Assembly (NCBI GenBank): GCA_964016885.1
Contig: OZ024743.1
Span: 23,436,001-23,500,000 of the forward strand
Direction of reading: 5' to 3'
Length of the DNA: 64,000 nt
Source of the DNA: Eledone cirrhosa
Lineage: Eukaryota
Below the pieces are notes generated by a model, which had not been told where the DNA came from, searched no databases, and worked only from the letters and a program-made list of their open reading frames with translations. Below are positions 13,730-32,367 of this stretch, piece by piece. A program made the position numbers and the translations under genes. Numbering within the stretch: the first letter of the stretch is position 1; every line of letters begins with the position of its first letter.

Positions 13730-14433
13730 CCACTTTGCCCAGCTTTCCCAGTTCTGTAAGTCGGGGCATAGTAATGGTGATGAGCCAAGTCAAGAACAAG
13801 GGAGACATAGATATTTTCCAGTTACTGACTCTGCTGAAAACAGAGTTTAAGATTTTAGTCAAAGTTAGCATGGAAGATGTACGTTAAACGATGATGATGA
13901 TGATGTGCTAGCAACGAGGTTGGCAGGTGTAGTCTTCTTTTAGTTGGGAAGGGCAAGCAGTTTTACTCTGTCTCATGACTGTAGCAAAAGAAATTATTTG
14001 TGGACGTGGTTGAAAGGACTGAAGACAGACCCTTTCCTCTTCTGCCAAGCTCTCATTGACTTTTCAAGTTCCACTTGGAAAAGAGGGTGAGGATGGAGAG
14101 GGAAGTACTACCCCGAATATATTTGTTAAAGGTGGGTTTATGTAGTGAGAATAGCCTGAGCAGATGGGCCTACTCTGACATGCACCTGTTGACCAAAGAG
14201 TTTCGAGAAGAGAAGCACAACTTCCTATAGTACTCTTAGAGATTAGGAGGAGGTAGGATCTGTGAGGTTCCTAAGTCACCCCTGGGTAGTGTTTCTCCTA
14301 TTTAGGAATTTTCATTGTTATAATTGTATTGTTTATTGTTATCTGTTATCTTTTTTATACTTTTTTTGTAAATCCCCACTGTCCTGGTTTTTGTATTATC
14401 CTCTATTTCAGCCCTAGTGTCCAATAAAGAAAT
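13730..14433 (+). mobile_element. Old fragments of the Tx1-like LINE family (RT piece and 3' end)
   Basis: PSSVSRGIV..NKGD..TLLKTEFKILVKV matches ORF2 of 26147-29566; ~13985 matches the AKEIVWWTRLKGLKT region; ends in aataaagaaat. Confidence 0.7.
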
Positions 14434-14607
14434 AATTGTTTCTATTATTGGCACAAGGCCAGCAATTATCCCAGTGTATTACTGGTGCTTTATTTTATCA
14501 ACCCTGTAAGGATGAAAGGCAAAGTTAACCTCAGAACGTAAAGGATCATAACTCTATGTTGCAAAGCATGGTGCCTGATGCTCTACCGATACTGCCAATC
14601 CACCACC
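14434..14607 (-). mobile_element. tRNA-derived SINE
   Basis: Same family as 4274, with an internal deletion. Confidence 0.85.
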
Positions 14608-14624
14608 TTAAAATTAATTAATGT

Positions 14625-15070
14625 TGCCACAAGGGCCTACATTTAGGGGACAATACAGAAAGTCAGGGTCAGTGGTAGTTTACAAAAAATATTTGAATAA
14701 AAAAATAAAAACAACAATAACAATAAATAATAGAATTACAAACAACAGAATTCCCCAAAAGTGGGGAGAACCCCCCAAGGGAAACTTAGGTATTCTACCA
14801 ATCCTGAACTACACAATGCTTCAAGAGCACCCAGAAAGGCACCCCTCTTCTCCTCAAATCAACCAGCCTACAACCGCATGCTCAGTGTAGGCTCATTCAG
14901 ACAGACCATTCTTGCCATATTCACTCACCTTTTAACAAATGTATCGCTGGCAGCACTTCTCTCTCCACCCTCACCTTCCTTTCTAGGTGAAACTTGAAAA
15001 TAGTTGATGAGGGATTAACTGAAGAGAAAAATGTCCGTCTTCAATTCTTTTGACCTGGTCCACATTGGTG
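14625..15070 (-). mobile_element. Old 3' end of a Tx1-like LINE, opposite orientation to 13920-14433
   Basis: Similar to the LINE 3' UTR and ORF2 C-terminus at 19860-20310. Confidence 0.55.
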
Positions 15071-18916: not shown

Positions 18917-19712
18917 AGAGTCAGGACCCCTGTAGAAACGGCCTGTGCTCAGCCGTCGGAGTCCTGACTCTTTTCATATTACCCACTCTACTACACTAAG
19001 TATCGAGTATTCTGGTGCGTTATGGTCCACCTAGTTTCTTACCACACTTTCTTTGTTATACATACATACTTACATAGTCAGTCAGTCAACGCGATGAGTC
19101 GCACATTTTGGCGTAGGAGACTATTCATTAAATTTAAGATGAATACTAACTCCGACAGTAATGCCACAACTACCGGTCATGTTGAATAAATGGTTATTCT
19201 TCTAACTATATCCACTGAAGACACCTTTTATTCGAATTCGTAGAGATATCCAACTAAATACATAATTCATTTTACAAGGATTTGCTACAAACAGCGTGGC
19301 TGAACACAACATCATCAACAACATTAATGAAGTACCGAAGAAAAACAACAACGAGAAAGGTAAACAAAATTTACTCACTTGTAGCTACAGAAGGAACCGA
19401 AATTATAAATTGCATTTTCCTTGTAGCTTCTCTGCCTTCTTTCGCCGAAAAGAAGTAGGTGACATAGTCACTACTTTAAAAATGATAGCGTAAGGTCTTC
19501 AAAATGTTTTTAATTAAACATACGGTATATTGCCAGAAAAAAGAGAATCAGATTGCTGAAGCTCACGGGGGAGATGACAAATGACTGTGACGAATGGAGA
19601 GATGCCATGCTTAATAAGACCCGTCCCGCCCTTGCAAGCAGAAAAAAATGAACGTAAAATGATGATGATGATGATACATTCATGTATACATCGCTATTTC
19701 AGAGCACCAATC

Positions 19713-19752
<40 letters not shown>

Positions 19753-19808
19753 CATGATGGCTGCCCCCTCGTTATCGAGTATGGCCATTGCACGAGAAAA
19801 AAAAAAAA

Positions 19809-19850
<42 letters not shown>

Positions 19851-19852
<2 letters not shown>

Positions 19853-22800
19853 TTTCTTTATTAACCACAAGGGTTTACATAAAGTAGACATTAAGGACAG
19901 TGCAGGACAATGCAGGACGGTACAAATGGGCATTTCTGCGTGTAAAAAAACAAAAACAGAGGATGTAACAAAAATAACAATGAAAATAACAATGAAAAAT
20001 TCCCCAATAGGGGGGAGACTTCGGAGGGACATTTGTGGAGAAAGCCCAGTAAAAAGCCACAATGACCCTGACCACCAAGGCAAGTGCCCTCTCCCAGTTT
20101 TCCACCTTTAGTTTACAGATATATACTCAGAGTCGGCCCATTCACTCGGGCCATTCTTGCTTCTCTCACCCATCTTTCAACAAAATGCTGGGAAGAGAGC
20201 ACTTCCTTCTCTACTCTGATTTTCCTTTTCAAATGAAATTTGAAAAAGTCAATCAGAGCATCACCGAAGAGGTAAGTGCTCGTCTTCAGCCCTTTCAAAC
20301 GTGTCCACCATACTATCTCTTTCGCCATGGCCACCAGACAGATAAAAACTGCCTGCCCTTCCCGACTAAAGGAGGAGGGCGGGGCAATCCTCACGATAGA
20401 CTCAGATGATAGCCGGATCCGTCCTAAACGCGACAGCAGGTGTTCGACATAAACCCACAAGTCAGCAATTTTCGGACACTGGACGAGTGCGTGCAGGACG
20501 GTTTCGTCGCCCTGCGCGCATCTCGGACATGCCCAGGTGACGGCACCTCCATGCCTGTAGAGTTTATCCCGAACTGGCAAGGCTCCTCGGTAGCACTGCC
20601 AGGCCAGAGATTTCTGGAAGTTGTCCATAGGCCCTGGCCCGAAAGTTCTTCCGAAGAGATTGGCTAGTTGATTTTCGTCGACGCCTAGAGTTTCCCCAAG
20701 TACGTCGTCGCTCTTCCCCTCCACTAATCCTCTATAGAACGCCGAGGTGGAGTTTCCACCGATCACATTGCCCGATTGGTCGAGGGCTGTGAGCGCCTGA
20801 AGACATTCCAGTCTCCAGGCGCTCCCTCTCGGTCTTCGCTTGACCCAGGACTGCAGCTCCGTCAAGGAAACGAGCTGGGGAAATACGCGCCTAGCAAACG
20901 GCGACCACACCTGATCACCGTCGAGGAAGAGGTAGAGATGTCGTAGCCTGAGCGCGTGCCTGCGCATCATCAGCCACGGCATGCCCAGCCCTCCACGTAG
21001 CGGGTGTTGACAACAGATGGACCGCCTGACCATCGGAGCACGTCCCTTCCACAAAAAGCGAAAGAGCAAACGCTCCAGCGCAGTCAGGAGAGGCTTAGGA
21101 CAAGGTACGACGGTCAGGCGGTAGCAGATGACAGACGCGATGTACGCGTTAGCCACCTCCGCTCGACCTTTCAGGGATAGCTTCCTCTCCGCCCATTTCT
21201 GGGTGAGAGAAGCCACCCTGCTCGTCACCTCGTCCCAGTTTTTGTCCGTCTGGAGGTCCGGACCGAACCAGACCCCTAGCAATTTAACCGGTCCGTCCGT
21301 CCAGCGTCCGACGACGCTGTTGGACGGCATGGACCTGCCTCTCCAGGTGCCGAGCTGCAGGCCCACTGACTATTCCTGGTTGATCATTGCTCCTGTCACC
21401 GCTTCGTATTCTCTTAGTGTAGTGCCGATCGCCTCGATGTGTTTGGCGTTCGACACCACTACGGTGACATCGTCCGCATATGCTGACACGGATCTTCCGC
21501 ATCCTAGTTCGCGCGGGACTCCCCTCAACGTCTCCAGTTTGTGCAGTAATGGCTCGAGAGTCAATACGTACAAGAGGGACGAGAGGGGACATCCTTGGCG
21601 GACCGAGCGCATGATGTTGAACGGTTCCGACAGGTGACCGTTCACTCTCACCACAGAGCAGATGTCGCTGTGCATGGCAGCGATCCAGCCTCTGAAGACG
21701 GGCCCAAAGCCAGCCGCCCTCAGGACTGCCGCTAGGTAACGATGGTCGACCCTATCGAAAGCTTTCGACTGATCTAAATTGATCAAGGACCCACCCGTGC
21801 CAGGTTCCCTAGCTACCCTCTCTACGATGTATCGCATGAGGTGGAGGTTGTCGTGGATGGATCTGTCGGGAATGGCGCATGTCTGCGCCTCTCCCACCAG
21901 ACCACCAACGACAAGCGCCAACCTCTTTGCTCGCACCTTGGCCAAAATCTTAAACTCTGTGTTTAGCAGAGTTATGGGCCGGAAATGTTCTATGTTATCC
22001 CCCTTGTTCGGATCCTTTCTCAGCAGTGCCACCGCTCCTCGGCTCACAGAACTGGGAATTCTCCCGTTCTGTTGCCAGTTGCAGTAGACGTCCGCCAAGA
22101 GGCCTCCGAACAAGTCTGGCATCTGTACGTAAAGTTCATAGGGCAGACCATCCAAACCAGGCGATTTACCCCTTGTGCAGCCAGTCATTGCCTCCCTTAC
22201 TTCAGCGGCTGTTATCGGCTTTTCGCAACACTTCGCCTCAGTGGCCGAGAGCCGCGGCAGTCCGTCGAGGTAGACACTAAAGTCCATCCCTCTACCCGGC
22301 CCACCGCTGCCCCCGAACAGCTGAGCGAAGTGTCGCTGAAAAGCTTCACACATTTGCCCGGGATCGAGTAGCATGCGCCCGTCGTGGTCCACCAAAGACC
22401 GGATCGTGGCTTTGTTGCCACGACGCGCCTCCGCCACTCGGGCCCATTGAACGGCTTTCGTCCCCTCGTGTCTGAGAGCACGCACCCTTGCTCTGACAAC
22501 GCAGCCTTCGTGCTTTGCATTGAAGAATTGGTCAAGGGCCAATTTCGCCGCAAGCACGTCGGTCGCAATGCCTTTGCTAAGCGCCTCGTCTAATTTTCTA
22601 ACTAGTTCTCCCTCTGCTCTATTTTTCTCTATTGCTAAAGCCTTACTAAACCTAATCGATTCTATTCTAATCGCTCTTTTCAGAGCAAACCACCACTTGT
22701 TGTTGACGATGGCCCCCGTCAACGCCCGCTTAACTAGTTCGCTAATCCGGTCTCTGTAGGCCTTGCGCGCTGGTAAGGACGCGTTTAGCTTCCAGTAGCC

Positions 22801-25800
22801 GGGTCCTCGTCTATGAAGCCTATCTAAGTCAAGCACACAGATCACGAATTTGTGGTCCGTGTAGCTGACTATCTTGAATTGTGGACAGCCTATGCTAGAC
22901 CTATCTATTTCCCTACAAAATACTCTATCTAGATATGATCTGGATGACCCTATGCGGTTTGTCCAAGTCCACATTGGCACATTCGGGAAATCCAATCGGT
23001 ACCTGTCAGACAGTTCAAAACGCCTGAGCAGGTTGGTGAGGCTCTTGCACCCTCCACCCCTATCCGCTAATCCCACACAGTCCCAGCGTGCATCTAAGAT
23101 CCCGTTCCAGTCGCCCACTAACACTAAAGAGCGGGACGTTCCAAGAAAGGTCTCCAGACGCCGGAAGAAATCAGGCCGCCCTGCTCCTGTCGGGGCATAG
23201 ACGGCCACTAGCCTGAAAGCTTGCCCGTCTCCGCTGGTCACGTCCAGCACCACCAGCTTACCCTCTGGGTCTAGGAAGATGGCCCGTATGGCGAGATCCA
23301 AACCTCTCCGAAAAAGCACAGCAACTCCTCTACCGGATCCAGGACGGCTGGGAGATGCGTACACATCGTAGCCGCCGAAGATCGGTGCAAAGGCCCGTGC
23401 TTCGGAGATTCTGGTCTCGCTGATGGCGACTACATCTATGTTTAGTGACCTGAGGTCGTTGAGCAGGTGACCCTGCTTCCATGACGACCCCAAGCCACGC
23501 GCATTTATGCTGCCTATTCTGAGTGAGGTCATGTTTAAAATAGAGTGGAAAAGATGGGAAAGACCACTTACCGTACTTTTGGTAGAGGAAGGATGGTTTG
23601 TACATCCCTTTTCACTTGATCGTCTGGTGAAGGGACCGTTGAATCGTCCCTTCGGCTGGTTGTCGGCTCTTCTAAGAGAATGTCTGAGTATACTCTTCGA
23701 TTGATGGTTCCTCCTAGGTCCCTGAAATCACCAACTGCGTTGGGGAATTTCGTTTTAATATTTGTGTATTGTTTCTGTGCTATTTTTAGCAGTCTTATGT
23801 TAGTTGGCGTTTTGATTGGTGCTGGTATTATGTAGTCCTGTTGTAAAATGTCTGTGTGTTCAATTATGTAAGTCATTAGTTTCTTGTTGTGTGTATTTAT
23901 TGCCGTGCATTTGTTTTTTTCTGGGGGTGGGGTGTGGTTCTGCTATTTTCTTGTCGTTGTTGCTGGGTGTGTGTGTTTTGTTGTTGTGTTTGCGATGTTG
24001 GTGCTTGTGGTGGTGGTGTTGAAGGTGTTGTTGGCGGTGGGGTTGTCGCCGGTGGTGATGGTGGTGCTAGTGTGGGTGGTGATGGTGTTGGTGTTGTTGC
24101 TGCTGTGGGTCTCTTTGCAGTAGACTTTACCCTTTTCTCATTTCTTTCCTCCCTTTTCAAAGGCGACGATGCGCTGCTTCTGCGTTTGTGCCTTCTTACG
24201 ACCTTTTGCCATCTCTCTCCCACCTCACACTCCATGTCTGATTCTGTGAGGTCGGGGAGGGGTACCAGCTCCACTCTTTCACTTGTTGTTGTTGGTGATG
24301 TTTGCACTGGAGTCTCTGTTGCAGCTGCATTTGGTATTGCTGTTGTTGTTGTTAGTATTTCCACTGCTGCTGCTGTTTTTGATTTCCGTGGAGTGGGTAT
24401 GGGTGCCACGGGCCTATCGTTCCTGGTTGCCGCTTGTCCTGTTGCTGGTAGCCGTGGAGCCGGATTCGGAAGGAGGGGGGTTTTCTCCTTTCTCAGGGTC
24501 TTCTCGTTGCAGAAGGCCCTGAGGTGAGTCTTCGATCCACAGCGAAAGCATTTCGGGCGTTTGCCCTCAACACTTATGGTGGGCAGTTGAGTGCCGTTAT
24601 CGAAGTCTATCACATCCGGGATAGCTTCGATGCACTCCTGGTTGGTTTGGATTAGCATCTCAATGGAGGAGCCGACCCAATCTTCTCTTACTTTTTTCTG
24701 TACTTGCAGTACAGTTGTTTTGTCCTCGATTCCGACGAGGACAGACGCGGCCAGCCAAGAAGGGGTCATTCCGGGGGGGACGTGGGTCAGTTTGACCCTC
24801 ACAATTTTTTGCCCACAGTAGGAGGGCACCAACACCATTTCCTCGCTCCTTAGGGTCACTACTGATTGGGCCTTTGCCTCCTGGGTGTGGCAAAAAGTAC
24901 GTCTACGGTGGCATATTTTTTGCCTCGGGTGATGTGCGTTTTCCGCTGCCACACAGACCCCAAGGCTTTTTGTATTTGGGCCTCTGTGGCTCTTTCCACC
25001 CTACGGGATTTTGTACTTACTGTACGGTACGTGACCGTACAGTGCTCTTGGGTTTCGAAAAATTTCTCCGCTGCCTTGCAGATTGCTCGGTGTCCGTTCT
25101 TTGTCACCATCTTCTTCGCTTCCTCTAATTCCTCATTTGTTATGAGGATTGTTTCCAAGTTTTTCGTAATACCTGCAAATGAGATTGGTTTTTCTCTGCT
25201 GTTGTTGTTGTCGTCAGAGCTGCTGGTACTTTTGTTGTTGCTGCAGGTACTACGACTACTGCCTCCGCCGCTGTTGCTGTGGTTGTTGTTGGTGTTGCTG
25301 CTGCTAATGCTGTTGTTGTTTATGCTGCTGGTGATGCTGTTGCGGCTGCTACTGTTGTTTTCATTGTCACTGTTGCTGTTGTTATTACGGCTGCTACTGC
25401 TATTATTCCTGACGTCAGACGAATGAACTGGGTTTTCGTATTTCCCGCACACCTGTTTCGTCGCTGTCGTCGTCGTCGTGGAGAAACCTTGCACGCTTTG
25501 CACGAGACTTTTCTTTTCTTTCGTCACTTGCGAAAGAGAAGGGAGGGAGAGAGACACATTTAAAGAAGGGAGGGAAAGAGACAATCTTCTCTCTGCTGTA
25601 GTGATGATTGAGGAAGAAGAAGACGGAATGAGTGGGAGTGACGTATGAAATTTCTTTTTCGTAGCCATGTTGTTTTTTTGTTTAAAATGAAATTTTGGGT
25701 ACAAAACCCCAATAACTGGTTATTTAACCCCGAAGGGACAAATAACGGACAGAAAGACCCCTCTCACGAGGAGGAGGGTGTCTTTATCAACAATTTGGTT

Positions 25801-25884
25801 CAAGTTTTAAACAATTTACAATTGTTTTAACGGTTAAAAATTACTATACCTTACAGAGCCGAGCCTCCGTCAACCATGGCATTC
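19851..25884 (-). mobile_element. Tx1/L1-like LINE copy A (full length, inactivated)
   Basis: Collinear with copy B; ORF2 nonsense AAG>TAG at 21370; ORF1 frameshifts near 24883 and 23920; AATAAA at 19857-19862 before the (ATT)n tail. Confidence 0.95.
20113..23532 (-). pseudogene. Copy A ORF2 (APE-RT-zinc finger), one in-frame stop
   Basis: The 720 aa and 417 aa ORFs are in the same frame, split only by the TAG at 21370-21372. Confidence 0.95.
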
Positions 25885-26146
25885 AATAATAATAATAATA
25901 ATGTTTTCTTTATTAACCACAAGGGTTCACATAAAGTAGACATTAAGGACAGTACAGGACAATACAGGACGGTACAAATGGGCATTTCTGCGTGTAAAAA
26001 AACAGAGGTTGAAATAAAATAACAAAGAAAAAATTCCCCAATAGGGGGGAGACTTCCAAGGGACATTTGTGGAGAAAGCCCATTAAAAGACCACAGTGGC
26101 CCTGACCACCAGGGCAAGTGCCCTCTCCCAGTTTTCCACCTTTAAT

Positions 26147-29100
26147 TTACAGACACATACTCAGAGAAGGCCCATTCATTCGGGCCATACTTGCTTCTCT
26201 CACCCATCTTTCAACAAAATGCTGGGAAGAGAGCACTTCCCTCTCTACCCTGATTTTCCTTTTCAAATGAAATTTGAAAAAGTTAATCAGGGCATCACCG
26301 AAGAGGTAAGTGCTCGTCTTCAGCCCTTTCAAACGTGTCCACCATACTATCTCTTTCGCCATGGCCACCAGACAGATAAAAACTGTCTGCCCTTCCAGGC
26401 TAAAGGAAGGGGGCGGGGCAATCCTCACGATGGACTCAGCTGATAGCTGGATCCGTCCTACACGTGACAGCAGGTATTCAACATAAACCCACAAGTCAGC
26501 AATGCTCGGACACTGGACGAGTGCGTGCAGGACGGTTTCGTCGCCCTGCGCGCATCTCGGACATGCCCGGCTGACGGCATCTCCATGCCTGTAGAGTTTA
26601 TCCCGAACTGGCAAAGCTCCTCGGTAGCACTGCCAGGCCAGGGATTTCTGGAAGTTGTCCATAGGCCCCGGCCCGAAAGTCCTTCCGAAGAGATTGGCTA
26701 GTTGATTTTCGTCGACGCCTAGAGTTTCTCCAAGTACGTCGTCGCTCTTCCCCTCCACTAATCCCCTATAGAACGCCAAGGTGGAGTTTCCACCGATCAC
26801 ATTGCCCGATTGGTCGAGGGCTGTGAGCGCCTGAAGACATTCCAGTCTCCAAGCGCTCCCTCTCGGTCTTCGCTTGACCCAGGACTGCAGCTCCGTCAAG
26901 GAGACGAGCTGGGGAAAAACGTTTCTTGCAAACGGCGACCACACCTGATCACCGTCGAGGAAGAGGTGGAGATGTCGTAGCCTGAGCGCGTGTCTGCGCA
27001 TCATCAGCCACGGCATGCCCAGCCCTCCACGTAGCGGGTGTTGACAGCAGATGGACCGCCTGACCATCGGAGCGCGTCCCTTCCACAAGAAGCGAAAGAG
27101 CAAACGCTCCAGCGCAGTCAGGCGGGGCTTAGGACAAGGTACGACGGTCAGGCGGTAGTAGATGACGGATGCGATGTACGCATTCGCCACCTCCGCTCGA
27201 CCTTTCAGGGATAGCTTCCTCTCGGCCCATTTCTGGGTGAGAGAAGCCACCCTGCTCGTCACCTCGTCCCAGTTTTTGTCCGTCTGGAGGTCTGGACCGA
27301 ACCAGGCCCCTAGCAATTTAACCGGTCCGTCCGTCCAGCGCCCGACGACGCTGTTGGACGGCATGGACCTGCCTCTCCAGGTGCCGAGCTGCAGGCCCAC
27401 TGACTTTTCCTGGTTGATCATTGCTCCTGTCACCGCTTCGTATTCTCTTAGTGTAGTGCCGATCGCCTCGATGTGTTTGGCGTTCGACACCACTACGGTG
27501 ACATCGTCGGCATATGCTGACACGGATCTTCCGCATCCTAGTTCGCGCGGGACCCCCCTCAACGTCTCCAGTTTGTGCAGTAATGGCTCGAGAGTCAATA
27601 CGTACAATAGGGACGAGAGGGGACATCCTTGGCGGACCGAGCGCATGATGTTGAACGGTTCCGAAAGGTGACCGTTCACTCTCACTACAGAGCAGATGTC
27701 GCTGTGCATGGCAGCGATCCAGCCTCTGAAGACGGGCCCAAAGCCAGCCGCCCTCAGGACTGCCGTTAGGTAACGATGGTCGACCCTATCGAAGGCTTTC
27801 GACTGATCTAAATTGATCAAAGACCCACCTGTGCCAGGTTCCCTAGCTACCCTCTCTACGATGTATCGCATGAGGTGGAGGTTGTCGTGGATGGATCTGT
27901 CGGGAATGGCGCATGTCTGTGCCTCTCCCATCAGACCACCAACGACAAGCGCCAACCTCTTTGCTAGCACCTTGGCCAAAATCTTGAACTCTGTGTTTAG
28001 CAGAGTTATGGGCCGGAAATTGTCTATGTTATCCCCCTTGTTCGGATCCTTTCTCAGCAGTGCCACCGCTCCTCGGCTTACAGAACTGGGAATTCTCCCG
28101 TTCTGTTGCCAGTTGCAGTAGACGTCCGCCAAGAGGCCTCCGAACAAGTCTGGCATCTGTACGTAAAGTTCATAGGGCAGACCATCCAAACCAGGTGATT
28201 TACCCCGTGTGCAGCCAGTCATTGCCTCCCTTACTTCAGCGGCTGTTATCGGCTTTTCGCAACACTTCGCCTCAGTGGCCGAGAGCCGCGGCAGTCCGTC
28301 GAGGTAGACACTAAAGTCCATCCCTCTACCCGGCCCCCCGCTGCCCCCGAACAGCTGAGCGAAGTGTCGCTGAAAAGCTTCACACATTTGCCCGGGATCG
28401 AGTAGCATGCGCCCGTCGTGGTCCACCAAAGACCGGATCGTGGCTTTGTTGCCACGACGCGCCTCCGCCACTCGGGCCCATTGAACGGCTTTCGTCCCCT
28501 CGTGTCTGAGAGCACGCACCCTAGCTCTGACAACGCAGCCTTCGTGCTTTGCATTGAAGAATTGGTCAAGGGCCAATTTCGCCGCAAGCACGTCGGTCGC
28601 AATGCCTTTGCTAAGCGCCTCATCTAATTTTCTAACTAGTTCTCCCTCTGCTCTATTTTTCTCTATTGCTAAAGCCTTACTAAACCTAATCGATTCTATT
28701 CTAATCGCTCTTTTCAGAGCAAACCACCACTTGTTGTTGACGATGGCCCCCGTCAACGCCCGCTTAACTAGTTCGCTAATCCGGTCTCTGTAGGCCTTGC
28801 GCGCTGGTAAGGACGCGTTTAGCTTCCAGTAGCCGGGTCCTCGTCTATGAAGCCTATCTAGGTCAAGCACACAGATCACGAATTTGTGGTCCGTGTAGCT
28901 GACTATCTTGAATTGTGGACAGCCTATGCTAGACCTATCTATTTCCCTACAAAATACTCTATCTAGATATGATCTGGATGACCCTATGCGGTTTGTCCAA
29001 GTCCACATTGGCACATTCGGGAAATCCAATCGGTACCTGTCAGACAGTTCAAAACGCCTGAGCAGGTTGGTGAGGCTCTTGCACCCTCCACCCCTATCCG

Positions 29101-29566
29101 CTAATCCCACACAGTCCCAGCGTGCATCTAAGATCCCGTTCCAGTCGCCCACTAACACTAAAGAGCGGGACGTTCCAAGAAAGGTCTCCAGACGCCGGAA
29201 GAAATCAGGCCGCCCTGCTCCTGTCGGGGCATAGACGGCCACTAGCCTGAAAGCTTGCCCGTCTCCGCTGGTCACGTCCAGCACCACCAGCTTACCCTCT
29301 GGGTCCAGGAAGATGGCCCGTATGGCGAGATCCAAACCTCTCCGAAAAAGTACAGCAACTCCTCCACCGGATCCAGGACGGCTGGGAGATGCGTACACAT
29401 CGTAGCCGCCGAAGATCGGTGCGAAGGCCCGTGCTTCGGAGATTCTGGTCTCGCTGATGGCCACTACATCTATGTTTAGTGACCTGAGGTCGTTGAGCAG
29501 GTGACCCTGCTTCCATGACGACCCCAAGCCACGCGCATTTATGCTGCCTATTCTGAGTGAGGTCAT
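26147..29566 (-). CDS. LINE ORF2: APE endonuclease, reverse transcriptase, C-terminal zinc finger (1139 aa)
   Basis: SINARGL, ISET, VYAP, GDWN, YLDR, TDH; KSPGLDG, FRPITLLN, LDQSKAFDRV, QGCPLS, YADD; CPRC..ETVLHALVQC. Confidence 0.97.
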   Translation of the reverse strand: MTSLRIGSINARGLGSSWKQGHLLNDLRSLNIDVVAISETRISEARAFAPIFGGYDVYASPSRPGSGGGVAVLFRRGLDLAIRAIFLDPEGKLVVLDVTSGDGQAFRLVAVYAPTGAGRPDFFRRLETFLGTSRSLVLVGDWNGILDARWDCVGLADRGGGCKSLTNLLRRFELSDRYRLDFPNVPMWTWTNRIGSSRSYLDRVFCREIDRSSIGCPQFKIVSYTDHKFVICVLDLDRLHRRGPGYWKLNASLPARKAYRDRISELVKRALTGAIVNNKWWFALKRAIRIESIRFSKALAIEKNRAEGELVRKLDEALSKGIATDVLAAKLALDQFFNAKHEGCVVRARVRALRHEGTKAVQWARVAEARRGNKATIRSLVDHDGRMLLDPGQMCEAFQRHFAQLFGGSGGPGRGMDFSVYLDGLPRLSATEAKCCEKPITAAEVREAMTGCTRGKSPGLDGLPYELYVQMPDLFGGLLADVYCNWQQNGRIPSSVSRGAVALLRKDPNKGDNIDNFRPITLLNTEFKILAKVLAKRLALVVGGLMGEAQTCAIPDRSIHDNLHLMRYIVERVAREPGTGGSLINLDQSKAFDRVDHRYLTAVLRAAGFGPVFRGWIAAMHSDICSVVRVNGHLSEPFNIMRSVRQGCPLSSLLYVLTLEPLLHKLETLRGVPRELGCGRSVSAYADDVTVVVSNAKHIEAIGTTLREYEAVTGAMINQEKSVGLQLGTWRGRSMPSNSVVGRWTDGPVKLLGAWFGPDLQTDKNWDEVTSRVASLTQKWAERKLSLKGRAEVANAYIASVIYYRLTVVPCPKPRLTALERLLFRFLWKGRAPMVRRSICCQHPLRGGLGMPWLMMRRHALRLRHLHLFLDGDQVWSPFARNVFPQLVSLTELQSWVKRRPRGSAWRLECLQALTALDQSGNVIGGNSTLAFYRGLVEGKSDDVLGETLGVDENQLANLFGRTFGPGPMDNFQKSLAWQCYRGALPVRDKLYRHGDAVSRACPRCAQGDETVLHALVQCPSIADLWVYVEYLLSRVGRIQLSAESIVRIAPPPSFSLEGQTVFICLVAMAKEIVWWTRLKGLKTSTYLFGDALINFFKFHLKRKIRVEREVLSSQHFVERWVREASMARMNGPSLSMCL

Positions 29567-29601
29567 GTTTAAAATAGAGTGGAAAAGATGGGAAAGACCA
29601 C

Positions 29602-31731
29602 TTACCGTACTTTTGGTAGAGGAGGGATGGTTTTTCCATCCCTTTTCACTTGATCGTCTGGTGAAGGGACCGTTGAATCGTCCCTTCGGCTGGTCGTTGG
29701 CTCTTCTAAGAGAATGTCTGAGTATACTCTTCGATTGATGGTTCCTCCTAGGTCCCTGAAATCACCAACTGCGTTGGGGAATTTCGTTTTAATATTTGTG
29801 TATTGTTTCTGTGCTATTTTTAGCAGTCTTATGTTAGTTGGCGTTTTGATTGGTGCTGGTATTATGTAGTCCTGTTGTGAAATGTCTGTGTGTTCAATTA
29901 TGTAAGTCATTAGTTTCTTGTTGTGTGTATTTATTGCCGTGCATTTGTTTTTCTGGGGGTGGGGTGTGGTTCTGCTATTTTCTTGTCGTTGTTGCTGGGT
30001 GTGTGTGTTTTGTTGTTGTGTTTGCGATGTTGGTGCTTGTGGTGGTGGTGTTGAAGGTGTTGTTGGCGGTGGGGTTGTCGCCGGTGGTGATGGTGGTGCT
30101 GGTGTGGGTGGTGATGGTGTTGGTGGTGTTGCTGCTGTGGGTCTCTTTGCAGTAGACTTTACCCTTTTCTCATTTCTTTCCTCCCTTTTCAAAGGCGACG
30201 ATGCGCTGCTTCTGCGTTTGTGCCTTCTTGCGACCTTTTGCCATCCCTCTCCCACCTCACACTCCATGTCTGATTCTGTAAGGTCGGGGAGGGGTACCAG
30301 CTCCACTCTTTCACTTGTTGTTGTTGGTGATGTTTGCACTGGAGTCTCTGTTGCAGCTGCATTTGGTATTGCTGTTGTTGTTGTTAATATTTCCACTGCT
30401 GCTGCTGTCTTTGATTTCCGTGGAGTGGGTATGGGTGCCACGGACCTATCGTTCCTGGTTGCCGCTTGTCCTGTTGCTGGTAGCCGTGGAGCCGGATTCG
30501 GAAGGAGGGGGGTTTTCTCCTTTCTCAGGGTCTTCTCGTTGCAGAAGGCCCTGAGGTGAGTCTTCGATCCACAGCGAAAGCATTTCGGGCGTTTGCCCTC
30601 AACACTTATGGGCAGTTGAGTGCCGTTATCGAAGTCTATCACATCCGGGATAGCTTCGATGCACTCCTGGTTGGTTTGGATTAGCATCTCAATGGAGGAG
30701 CCGACCCAATCTTCTCTTACTTTTTTCTGTACTTGCAGTACAGTTGTTTTGTCCTCGATTCCGACGAGGACAGACGCGGCCAGCCAAGAAGGGGTCATTC
30801 CGGGGGGGACGTGGGTCAGTTTGACCCTCACAATTTTTTGCCCGCAGTAGGAGGGCACCAACACCATTTCCTCGCTCCTTAGGGTCACTACTGATTGGGC
30901 CTTTGCCTCCTGGGGTGTGGCAAAAAGTACGTCTACGGTGGCGTATTTTTTGCCTCGGGTGATGTGCGTTTTCCTCTGCCACACAGACCCCAAGGCTTTT
31001 TGTATTTGGGCCTCTGTGGCTCTTTCCACCCTACGGGATTTTGTACTTACTGTACGGTACGTGACCGTACAGTGCTCTTGGGTTTCGAAAAAATTTTTCG
31101 CTGCCTTGCAGATTGCTCGGTGTCCGTTCTTTGTCACCATCTTCTTCGCTTCCTCTAATTCCTCATTTGTTATGAGGATTGTTTCCAAGTTTTTCGCAAT
31201 ACCTGCAAATGAGATTGGTTTTTCTCTGCTGTTGTTGTTGTCGTCAGAGCTGCTGGTACTTTTGTTGTTGCTGCAGGTACTACGACTACTGCCTCCGCCG
31301 CTGTTGCTGTGGTTGTTGTTGGTGTTGCTGCTGCTAATGCTGTTGTTGTTTATGCTGTTGGTGATGCTGTTGCGGCTGCTACTGTTGTTTTCATTGTCAC
31401 TGTTGCTGTTGTTATTACGGCTGCTACTGCTATTATTCCTGACGTCAGACGAATGAACTGGGTTTTCGTATTTCCCGCACACCTGTTTCGTCGCTGTCGT
31501 CGTCGTCGTGGAGAAACCTTGCACGCTTTGCACGAGACTTTTCTTTTCTTTCGTCGCTTGCGAAAGAGAAGGGAGGGAGAGAGACACATTTAAAGAAGGG
31601 AGGGAGAGAGACAATCTTCTCTCTGCTGTAGTGATGATTGAGGAAGAAGAAGACGGAATGAGTGGGAGTGACGTATGAAATTTCTTTTTCGTAGCCATGT
31701 TTTTTTGTTTAAAATGAAATTTTGGGTACAA
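29602..31731 (-). CDS. LINE ORF1 (up to 709 aa; one CCHC knuckle; Asn/Ser- and Pro/Thr-rich segments)
   Basis: CFRCGSKTHLRAFC = CX2CX4HX4C; ORF ends 35 nt before ORF2; true start probably the ATG of MATKKK. Confidence 0.9.
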   Translation of the reverse strand: MYPKFHFKQKNMATKKKFHTSLPLIPSSSSSIITTAERRLSLSLPSLNVSLSLPSLSQATKEKKSLVQSVQGFSTTTTTATKQVCGKYENPVHSSDVRNNSSSSRNNNSNSDNENNSSSRNSITNSINNNSISSSNTNNNHSNSGGGSSRSTCSNNKSTSSSDDNNNSREKPISFAGIAKNLETILITNEELEEAKKMVTKNGHRAICKAAKNFFETQEHCTVTYRTVSTKSRRVERATEAQIQKALGSVWQRKTHITRGKKYATVDVLFATPQEAKAQSVVTLRSEEMVLVPSYCGQKIVRVKLTHVPPGMTPSWLAASVLVGIEDKTTVLQVQKKVREDWVGSSIEMLIQTNQECIEAIPDVIDFDNGTQLPISVEGKRPKCFRCGSKTHLRAFCNEKTLRKEKTPLLPNPAPRLPATGQAATRNDRSVAPIPTPRKSKTAAAVEILTTTTAIPNAAATETPVQTSPTTTSERVELVPLPDLTESDMECEVGEGWQKVARRHKRRSSASSPLKREERNEKRVKSTAKRPTAATPPTPSPPTPAPPSPPATTPPPTTPSTPPPQAPTSQTQQQNTHTQQQRQENSRTTPHPQKNKCTAINTHNKKLMTYIIEHTDISQQDYIIPAPIKTPTNIRLLKIAQKQYTNIKTKFPNAVGDFRDLGGTINRRVYSDILLEEPTTSRRDDSTVPSPDDQVKRDGKTIPPLPKVR

Positions 31732-32367
31732 AACCCCAATAACTGGTTATTTAACCCCGAAGGGCCAAATAACGGACAGAAAGACCCCTCTCACGAGGAG
31801 GAGGGTGTCTTTATCAACAATTTGGTTCAAGTTTTAAACAATTTACAATTGTTTTAACGGTTAAAAATTACTATACCTTACAGAGCCGAGCCTCCGTCAA
31901 CCATGGCATTCAATAATAATAATAATAATAATAGTACACTATTAATAATTATTAATGCACTCGTGCAATTCCTGTGCGTGACGAATATTTTTAAAGTGAG
32001 GAAAGACTGTGCACTGAGCAAATCCTACTCTCTGAGCGACAGTAGCTATAACCCGAAAAGAAGAAAAGATCAACATCATCGGTAACTAGTGAGCCGCAGG
32101 TTTTATGTCAGAGTTAACCCAGTTTCCTGAGATGCCTTCTCCTAGAAGAATGCCCTGACAAGGGCTAGGAGTTCTTCACTCCCAGTGGTTTAACTGCGCG
32201 ATCCGGCATCCAGCCCGATTATTTCTATGTCCCCGCGCAAAAAAAAAAAAAAAAAAAATCACTTATTGACACTTATACGTACGACATACGCACACGCGCA
32301 AACATATGCGCGCGCACAGCAACACTCATACATACAAACAAACACACACACGCTACTCTACTCACTT

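Follow-up and report, generated by a model that had tools for sequence, protein, structure and literature searches.

The genome of Eledone cirrhosa carries a young, high-copy LINE family of the L1/Tx1 group that sits in (AAT)n microsatellites in a single orientation, probably as a result of target-primed insertion that duplicates approximately 13–18 bp of the tract and regenerates the target. This reading is built on observed features of the family: the association of the repeat with the flanks of its copies, the orientation and phase of the junctions, the duplications at truncated copies, a floor to spacer length in tandem arrays and the separate origins of two neighboring copies. AAT is apparently an unreported target unit for a microsatellite-targeting LINE of the APE type. 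Because the microsatellite-seeking habit is already known, the family represents a new target of a known kind rather than a new kind of element.

The two neighboring copies, termed A and B, lie head to tail in a 64,000-nt stretch of contig OZ024743.1 (the window; coordinates below are window positions). The features of this locus are as follows.

19809..19850 (+): (AAT)14 array bordering copy A at its 3′ end (TRF, 14.0 units), just preceded by A12 (19797–19808)
19851..25884 (−): copy A, full-length LINE of 6034 bp, broken, subtype I throughout (type I at 104/104 diagnostic sites)
20113..23532 (−): copy A ORF2, with a premature stop at codon 721 (21370–21372)
23568..25668 (−): copy A ORF1, with frameshifts near 24882 and near 23914
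25885..25902 (+): (AAT)6 spacer of 18 bp between the 5′ end of A and the 3′ end of B (TRF, 6.0 units)
25903..31911 (−): copy B, full-length LINE of 6009 bp, both ORFs open, chimera of a type II 3′ part and a type I 5′ part
25903..26146 (−): copy B 3′ UTR, 244 nt, without poly(A)
26147..29566 (−): copy B ORF2, 1139 aa, with APE endonuclease (PF03372), reverse transcriptase (PF00078) and zf-RVT (PF13966) domains
27986..28061 (−): interval of the switch from subtype II to subtype I in copy B, from diagnostic sites
29602..31698 (−): copy B ORF1, 698 aa, with one CX2CX4HX4C knuckle at residue 373
31699..31911 (−): copy B 5′ UTR, 213 nt, subtype I
31912..31933 (+): (AAT)7 tract flush with the 5′ end of copy B (TRF, 7.3 units)

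These TRF coordinates reproduce the order given in an earlier note on this DNA, (AAT)14, A, (AAT)6, B, (AAT)7. The note had also described identical 5′ ends, a lack of poly(A) and the presence of the repeat on the 5′ side, and each of these features is found. Specifically, the minus-strand copies are 97.9% identical without gaps in pairwise alignment and share their terminal 146 nt at the 5′ end, both 5′ junctions abut AAT units, and both 3′ ends pass directly into (ATT)n on the element strand. The A12 run lies outside the left AAT array and is not part of copy A. The 9-mer AATAATAAT has no starts in the approximately 51.7 kb outside the pair and its reverse complement has seven, a small control confined to the window; the AAT flanks of the pair are not due to chance. 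The outer flanks of the pair (31940–32225 and 19100–19430) are high-copy short repeats.

Copy A carries three lesions, two frameshifts in ORF1 and one stop in ORF2. In copy B both ORFs are open, with six private amino acid changes, and the ORF2 motifs GDWN, YLDR, TDH and YADD are all present, leaving the catalytic motifs intact in sequence; copy B may be active. The three ORF2 domains score above the Pfam cut-off, and an Atlas search with ORF2 returns the same three and none besides. The closest solved relative is human L1 ORF2p (E about 2e-51, residues 5–854), with R2 at 6e-22, and among named proteins the nearest comes from Argonauta hians (73% over the reverse transcriptase region), in keeping with an octopod host. 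Large protein clusters from ENA assemblies (P0004, P0055, P0068 and related) are approximately 50% identical over that region. These matches place the family among APE-type elements of the L1 group, and its fixed 3′ end, variable 5′ truncation, target-site duplication and lack of LTRs are those of a non-LTR retrotransposon.

Tx1-clade elements have an ORF1 with RNA-binding domains and a CCHC knuckle, unlike the mammalian L1 type. Copy B ORF1 carries such a knuckle; no Pfam match to this protein lies above the cut-off, and its feature neighbors in the Atlas are zf-CCHC and ZCCHC3-RBD (RNA-binding) clusters (0.89–0.93), which are a lead only. No Tx1-labeled sequence occurs among the homolog and cluster matches of the element proteins, and it is the architecture only that points to Tx1 membership.

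To count the family we used exact sequence patterns, which favor young copies and give lower bounds. The genome contains at least 1619 type I 5′ ends (the subtype of the window), at least 2240 type II 5′ ends and at least 7095 family 3′ ends. Types I and II have ORF2 and the 3′ UTR in common, whereas their 5′ ends are different and their ORF1 sequences have diverged. A sample consisting of the first 80 of 100 listed 3′ ends, all on C1 (L-numbers below denote loci fetched), comprises 17 full-length type I copies, 34 full-length type II copies, 23 truncated or disrupted copies classed by hand, and 6 unresolved. Full-length copies therefore make up 51/80 of the sample, and both ORFs are open, by length cut-offs, in 7/80. 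The family may be active at present. With about 7000 3′ ends and more than half of the sample near 6 kb, the family occupies, by rough estimate, tens of Mb of genome stacked in AAT tracts. Type II copies outnumber type I. At L066, L067, L114 and other loci, ORF2 and 3′ UTR sequences that are closely related to one another follow at least three upstream modules, the breaks falling about 3670, 3750 and 4210 nt away from the 3′ end.

The repeat (AAT)3 is flush with 1539 of the 1619 type I 5′ ends (95%) and with 2090 of the 2240 type II 5′ ends (93%), each in one phase and one orientation, and it is found at a fixed offset from 5755 of the 7095 3′ anchors (81%). The unique 5′ flanks that the earlier note had named as telling against its proposal are thus not what most copies possess. 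Within the sample, at least three flush AAT units border the 5′ end of all 17 full-length type I copies and 31 of the 34 of type II, most full-length copies have at least five units on each side, and on the 3′ side 79 of the 80 sampled copies terminate in one or more AAT units. By published usage, a microsatellite-specific element has more than 20% of its flanks in one repeat class (PMC4494074); the values here are 81–95%, and the association extends to 5′-truncated copies.

These truncated copies distinguish target from tail. Of the 23 truncated or disrupted copies, 12 have (AAT)3 within 10 nt of the 5′ break, although L101, counted among these 12, is to be discounted as an internal deletion with its 5′ end retained; the background on that strand is 0 starts in 51.7 kb of the window. 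Because a tail alone cannot place AAT at points of 5′ truncation, the repeat is a target and not simply a tail. The remaining 11 copies break against (AAG)n, satellite DNA, an inverted tract or other element sequence, with (AAG)n at the 5′ side in only 2/23, which implies either that specificity is loose or that the junction was removed by later events. Of the proposal in the earlier note that this is an APE-type element specific for AAT, the flank association stands, and the nuclease itself may be the source of the specificity.

Duplications that include non-AAT letters and end in AAT were observed in the unselected set at L106 (16–17 bp) and L082 (11 bp). In addition, we selected imperfect sites, in which G or C precedes a single AAT at the 3′ junction (145 sites, 80 fetched). 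Such sites represent about 2% of copies (145 versus about 7095), with later insertions and point mutations as confounding factors, and they therefore serve as a gauge of duplication length in truncated copies and as a mere hint for full-length ones. Duplications of 13–18 bp ending in AAT are present in 8 of 44 truncated copies, some of them counted with 1–4 letters that overlap the element, whereas among 36 full-length copies a single one bears a diagnostic duplication (Fisher p = 0.037, or 0.17 with one near-match counted). Duplication length is consequently measured almost solely on truncated copies. The use of single-AAT 3′ sites as proof that no duplication occurs was weakened, since the sites are few and several represent later insertions or single mutations. 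At C1 approximately 28.015–28.018 Mb (L099 and L100), a 285-bp truncated copy lies in a minisatellite with a 7-bp duplication, and it is repeated 2.5 kb away together with the satellite.

Copies of the family are frequently in tandem, as the array building proposed in the earlier note would predict: a family 3′ end follows within 37 bp at 277 of the 1539 type I 5′ ends. Among 100 listed of these 277 junctions, the spacers measure 18 bp (15 cases), 21 (14), 24 (21), 27 (13), 30 (22), 33 (5), 34 (1) and 36 (9). None of the 100 has a spacer of 9–15 bp, though the pattern permitted them, and the A–B spacer lies at the 18-bp floor; one 15-bp spacer occurs in an older variant (L172). A floor of this size fits a duplication or pairing footprint of five to six units.

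At 104 diagnostic sites, defined as positions at which six copies of type I are distinguished from six of type II, copy A is type I throughout, whereas copy B matches type II at the 65 3′-most sites and type I at all but one of the remaining 39. The two copies differ at all 65 of the 3′ sites, and for either copy each of the five segments compared has nearer relatives elsewhere than in the other copy. The 5′ part of B is 99.7–100% identical to L084 and 98.5–98.8% identical to A. We considered whether the front end of B had been copied from its neighbor and rejected this origin, since that part of B is nearer L084/L083 than A. On these sequence comparisons, A and B are not products of one duplication, and copy B is probably the outcome of a template switch or of recombination between type II and type I copies. 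The chimeric make-up of B explains why its mismatches with A are unevenly spread, with 11–20 mismatches per 300 bp in the 3′-most 1.5 kb and 0–8 elsewhere. Older copies are fine mosaics of types I and II.

The earlier note had recognized that a segmental duplication or a haplotype mis-join would undermine its case. Such origins for the pair, whether by local tandem duplication or by two haplotypes having been mis-joined in assembly, are very improbable. The separate relatives of A and B, their 65/65 differences at 3′ sites and the closer match of the B front end to L084 all argue otherwise, as do the 277 similar junctions across the assembly and the lack of a second full-length left-flank match among the 40 scored of 5212 candidates. 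A mis-join would account for the single clean subtype switch in B, which could be an assembly chimera with a breakpoint common to no other copy among those listed, and no read or contig that spans the A–B junctions was obtained. A search with the right junction of three contig runs and one RAD-seq run gave no spanning piece or empty allele, in a procedure that skips repeats at a site where both sides are high-copy; the left-flank search returned no RNA run among the matches listed. Another tandem pair, L083/L084 (C1 approximately 22.04–22.05 Mb), is 99.6% identical, and its spacer and outer 5′ tract share one imperfection. Two origins fit this pair, a duplication of 34 bp or a genuine local tandem duplication.

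In the mechanism that we favor, the ORF2 endonuclease would first cut the AAT strand immediately after an AAT unit, whether or not helped by pairing of the terminal AUU of the RNA, and reverse transcription would start at that nick. The other strand would be cut approximately 13–18 bp away, so that part of the tract is duplicated and new targets are left on both sides. If the RNA starts inside the repeat, a full-length cDNA would end with a few AAT letters, and pairing of these letters with the target would generate a flush, in-phase 5′ junction. Later copies would then enter the regenerated tracts and extend them into head-to-tail arrays. The proposed RNA leader addresses a specific observation: the two unrelated 5′ ends (I and II) join the tract in the same phase in more than 93% of cases, whereas truncated copies join in mixed phases. 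Given a second nick whose position varies, the best explanation of same-phase joins in full-length copies is an RNA with repeat letters at its start.

A precedent is provided by R2, whose RNAs with upstream target sequence yield uniform 5′ junctions through pairing between cDNA and target (PMC3774820). The 5′ junctions of full-length copies are likewise uniform here, and by analogy the fixed 5′ phase suggests an RNA that starts within the repeat and pairs with the target. The AAT family is unlike R2 in clade, nuclease and target, and Rfam finds no HDV-like ribozyme in it, with no family above the gathering score for either type of 5′ end. A repeat leader could also explain why 51 of the 80 sampled copies are full-length, although the exact patterns favor young copies. 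A broader proposition, to which we give slightly less credence than doubt, is that an L1-group element has converged on the R2 strategy, with an RNA that starts inside (ATT)n, pairing of the cDNA end with the target, insertions that are mostly full-length and base-exact at both ends, and a regenerated landing pad of at least 18 bp, while an unrelated family with a restriction-like endonuclease uses the opposite strand of the tracts.

Other accounts of the same junctions differ in what selects the site or in what supplies the 5′ repeat. The site might be chosen by the RNA, if a loose, A/T-preferring endonuclease makes many nicks and only those that pair with the terminal (AUU)n of the RNA become insertions. 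Such a process would explain why the element nearly always joins directly onto an AAT at its 3′ end (79/80) and why degenerate targets share little except an AAY-rich stretch ending in AAT. Furthermore, in alignment with human L1 the hairpin loop of the endonuclease shows no gap, and the corresponding loop of the PDB LTX chimera is longer; a loop of human-L1 length offers no evident structural cause of AAT specificity. A like role has been proposed for the 3′ microsatellite tails of RTE-clade elements (PMC6007223). However, Tx1-type specificity has been ascribed mainly to the endonuclease (PMC4494074), and at L106, which is from the unselected set, at most one extra AAT unit lies between duplication and element, so that a long copied tail is not obligatory. 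We regard RNA-guided priming as a less likely account than nuclease targeting, but both can contribute to the choice of site. It is comparably doubtful that no RNA leader exists, such that the 5′ tract of full-length copies is target duplication only and the true first letters of the element are ATT. The abundance of full-length copies with five or more AAT units on both sides and the equality of the 18-bp spacer floor with the upper duplication length are what a leaderless element would give. In contrast, the phase shared by two unrelated 5′ ends and the mixed phases of truncated joins speak for a leader, as does the rarity of diagnostic duplications in full-length copies (1/36 against 8/44), with the p values given above. 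Finally, passive accumulation, in which insertion occurs anywhere and copies survive only in harmless AAT tracts, has been proposed for Drosophila Waldo-A/B near CA repeats (PMC3812793), but is hardly credible here, because survival bias yields neither fixed orientation, nor base-exact phase, nor duplications that end in AAT.

Returning to target-primed insertion into (AAT)n, the nearest parallels are the Tx1-clade elements Kibi and Koshi, found in (TC)n and (TTC)n of teleosts, and crocodilian Tx1 families in (TTCC)n/(TTTC)n (PMC4494074, PMC3812793). Like these, the present family is an APE-type element of the L1/Tx1 group in one microsatellite class, and by analogy it works as Kibi and Koshi do. 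Unlike these, its unit is AAT/ATT instead of a pyrimidine-strand repeat of the TC type, which sets it apart from Kibi and Koshi proper, and it has thousands of copies, most of them full-length in our sample. Among other Tx1 elements, Tx1-1_ACar is telomere-specific (PMC10088271). Dong, DongAg and DongBg reside in TAA microsatellites (PMC3812793, where Dong is listed among APE types). The AAT family shares with Dong a TAA/AAT microsatellite as its target. Dong belongs to the R4 clade, with a single ORF and a C-terminal restriction-like endonuclease, whereas two ORFs and an N-terminal APE domain set the present element apart from Dong (R4). Human LINE-1 resembles the family in its ORF2 alignment and in target-site duplications of a length similar to the 13–18 bp seen here. 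The family differs from it in the lack of poly(A), a CCHC-knuckle ORF1, a strict repeat target and many full-length copies.

In the literature searched, we found no APE-type Tx1 or L1 family that targets AAT/TAA; Repbase, Kojima and Fujiwara 2004, and the figure and supplements of PMC4494074 are outside that scope and may list one. For Octopus vulgaris, a report whose main text does not contain the word ‘target’ gives a table of L1-Tx1 and Dong-R4 families with recent activity (PMC13282606), and the portions seen of PMC9004415 and PMC3747384 add nothing on targets. How APE-type LINEs target microsatellites is not well understood (PMC3812793). The family described here offers thousands of young copies, many open ORFs, a simple target and measurable junction rules, and it makes two issues testable: whether sites are chosen by the nuclease or by RNA–DNA pairing, and what causes so many copies to be full-length.

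The AAT tracts also hold other sequences. Many AAT tracts that contain a family 3′ end share one upstream sequence (left flanks of L032, L033, L036, L045, L056 and L058–L060). At L043 (382–1374, +), this shared sequence is the end of an element that faces the opposite way in the tract and encodes a CCHC motif and a PD-(D/E)xK-like (restriction-like endonuclease) region with a weak match to R2 (E = 0.005); the element is probably Dong/R4-like. The right flanks of L010, L029, L030, L075, L086 and L125 are 3′ ends of related but distinct LINE families, which occupy AAT tracts in the same orientation as the main family. Old, degenerate 3′ ends of related ORF2 sequences (39–62% amino acid identity) are present in the window at 13745–14180 (+) and 14620–15062 (−), where they adjoin a SINE-like repeat at 14437–14600. 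This short high-copy repeat also occurs in the right flanks of L009, L017, L027 and L028, in AAT tracts and in the same direction as the LINE. It is probably a SINE, its 3′ end resembles that of the LINE, and it is likely to be a passenger of the AAT LINE family or of a relative.
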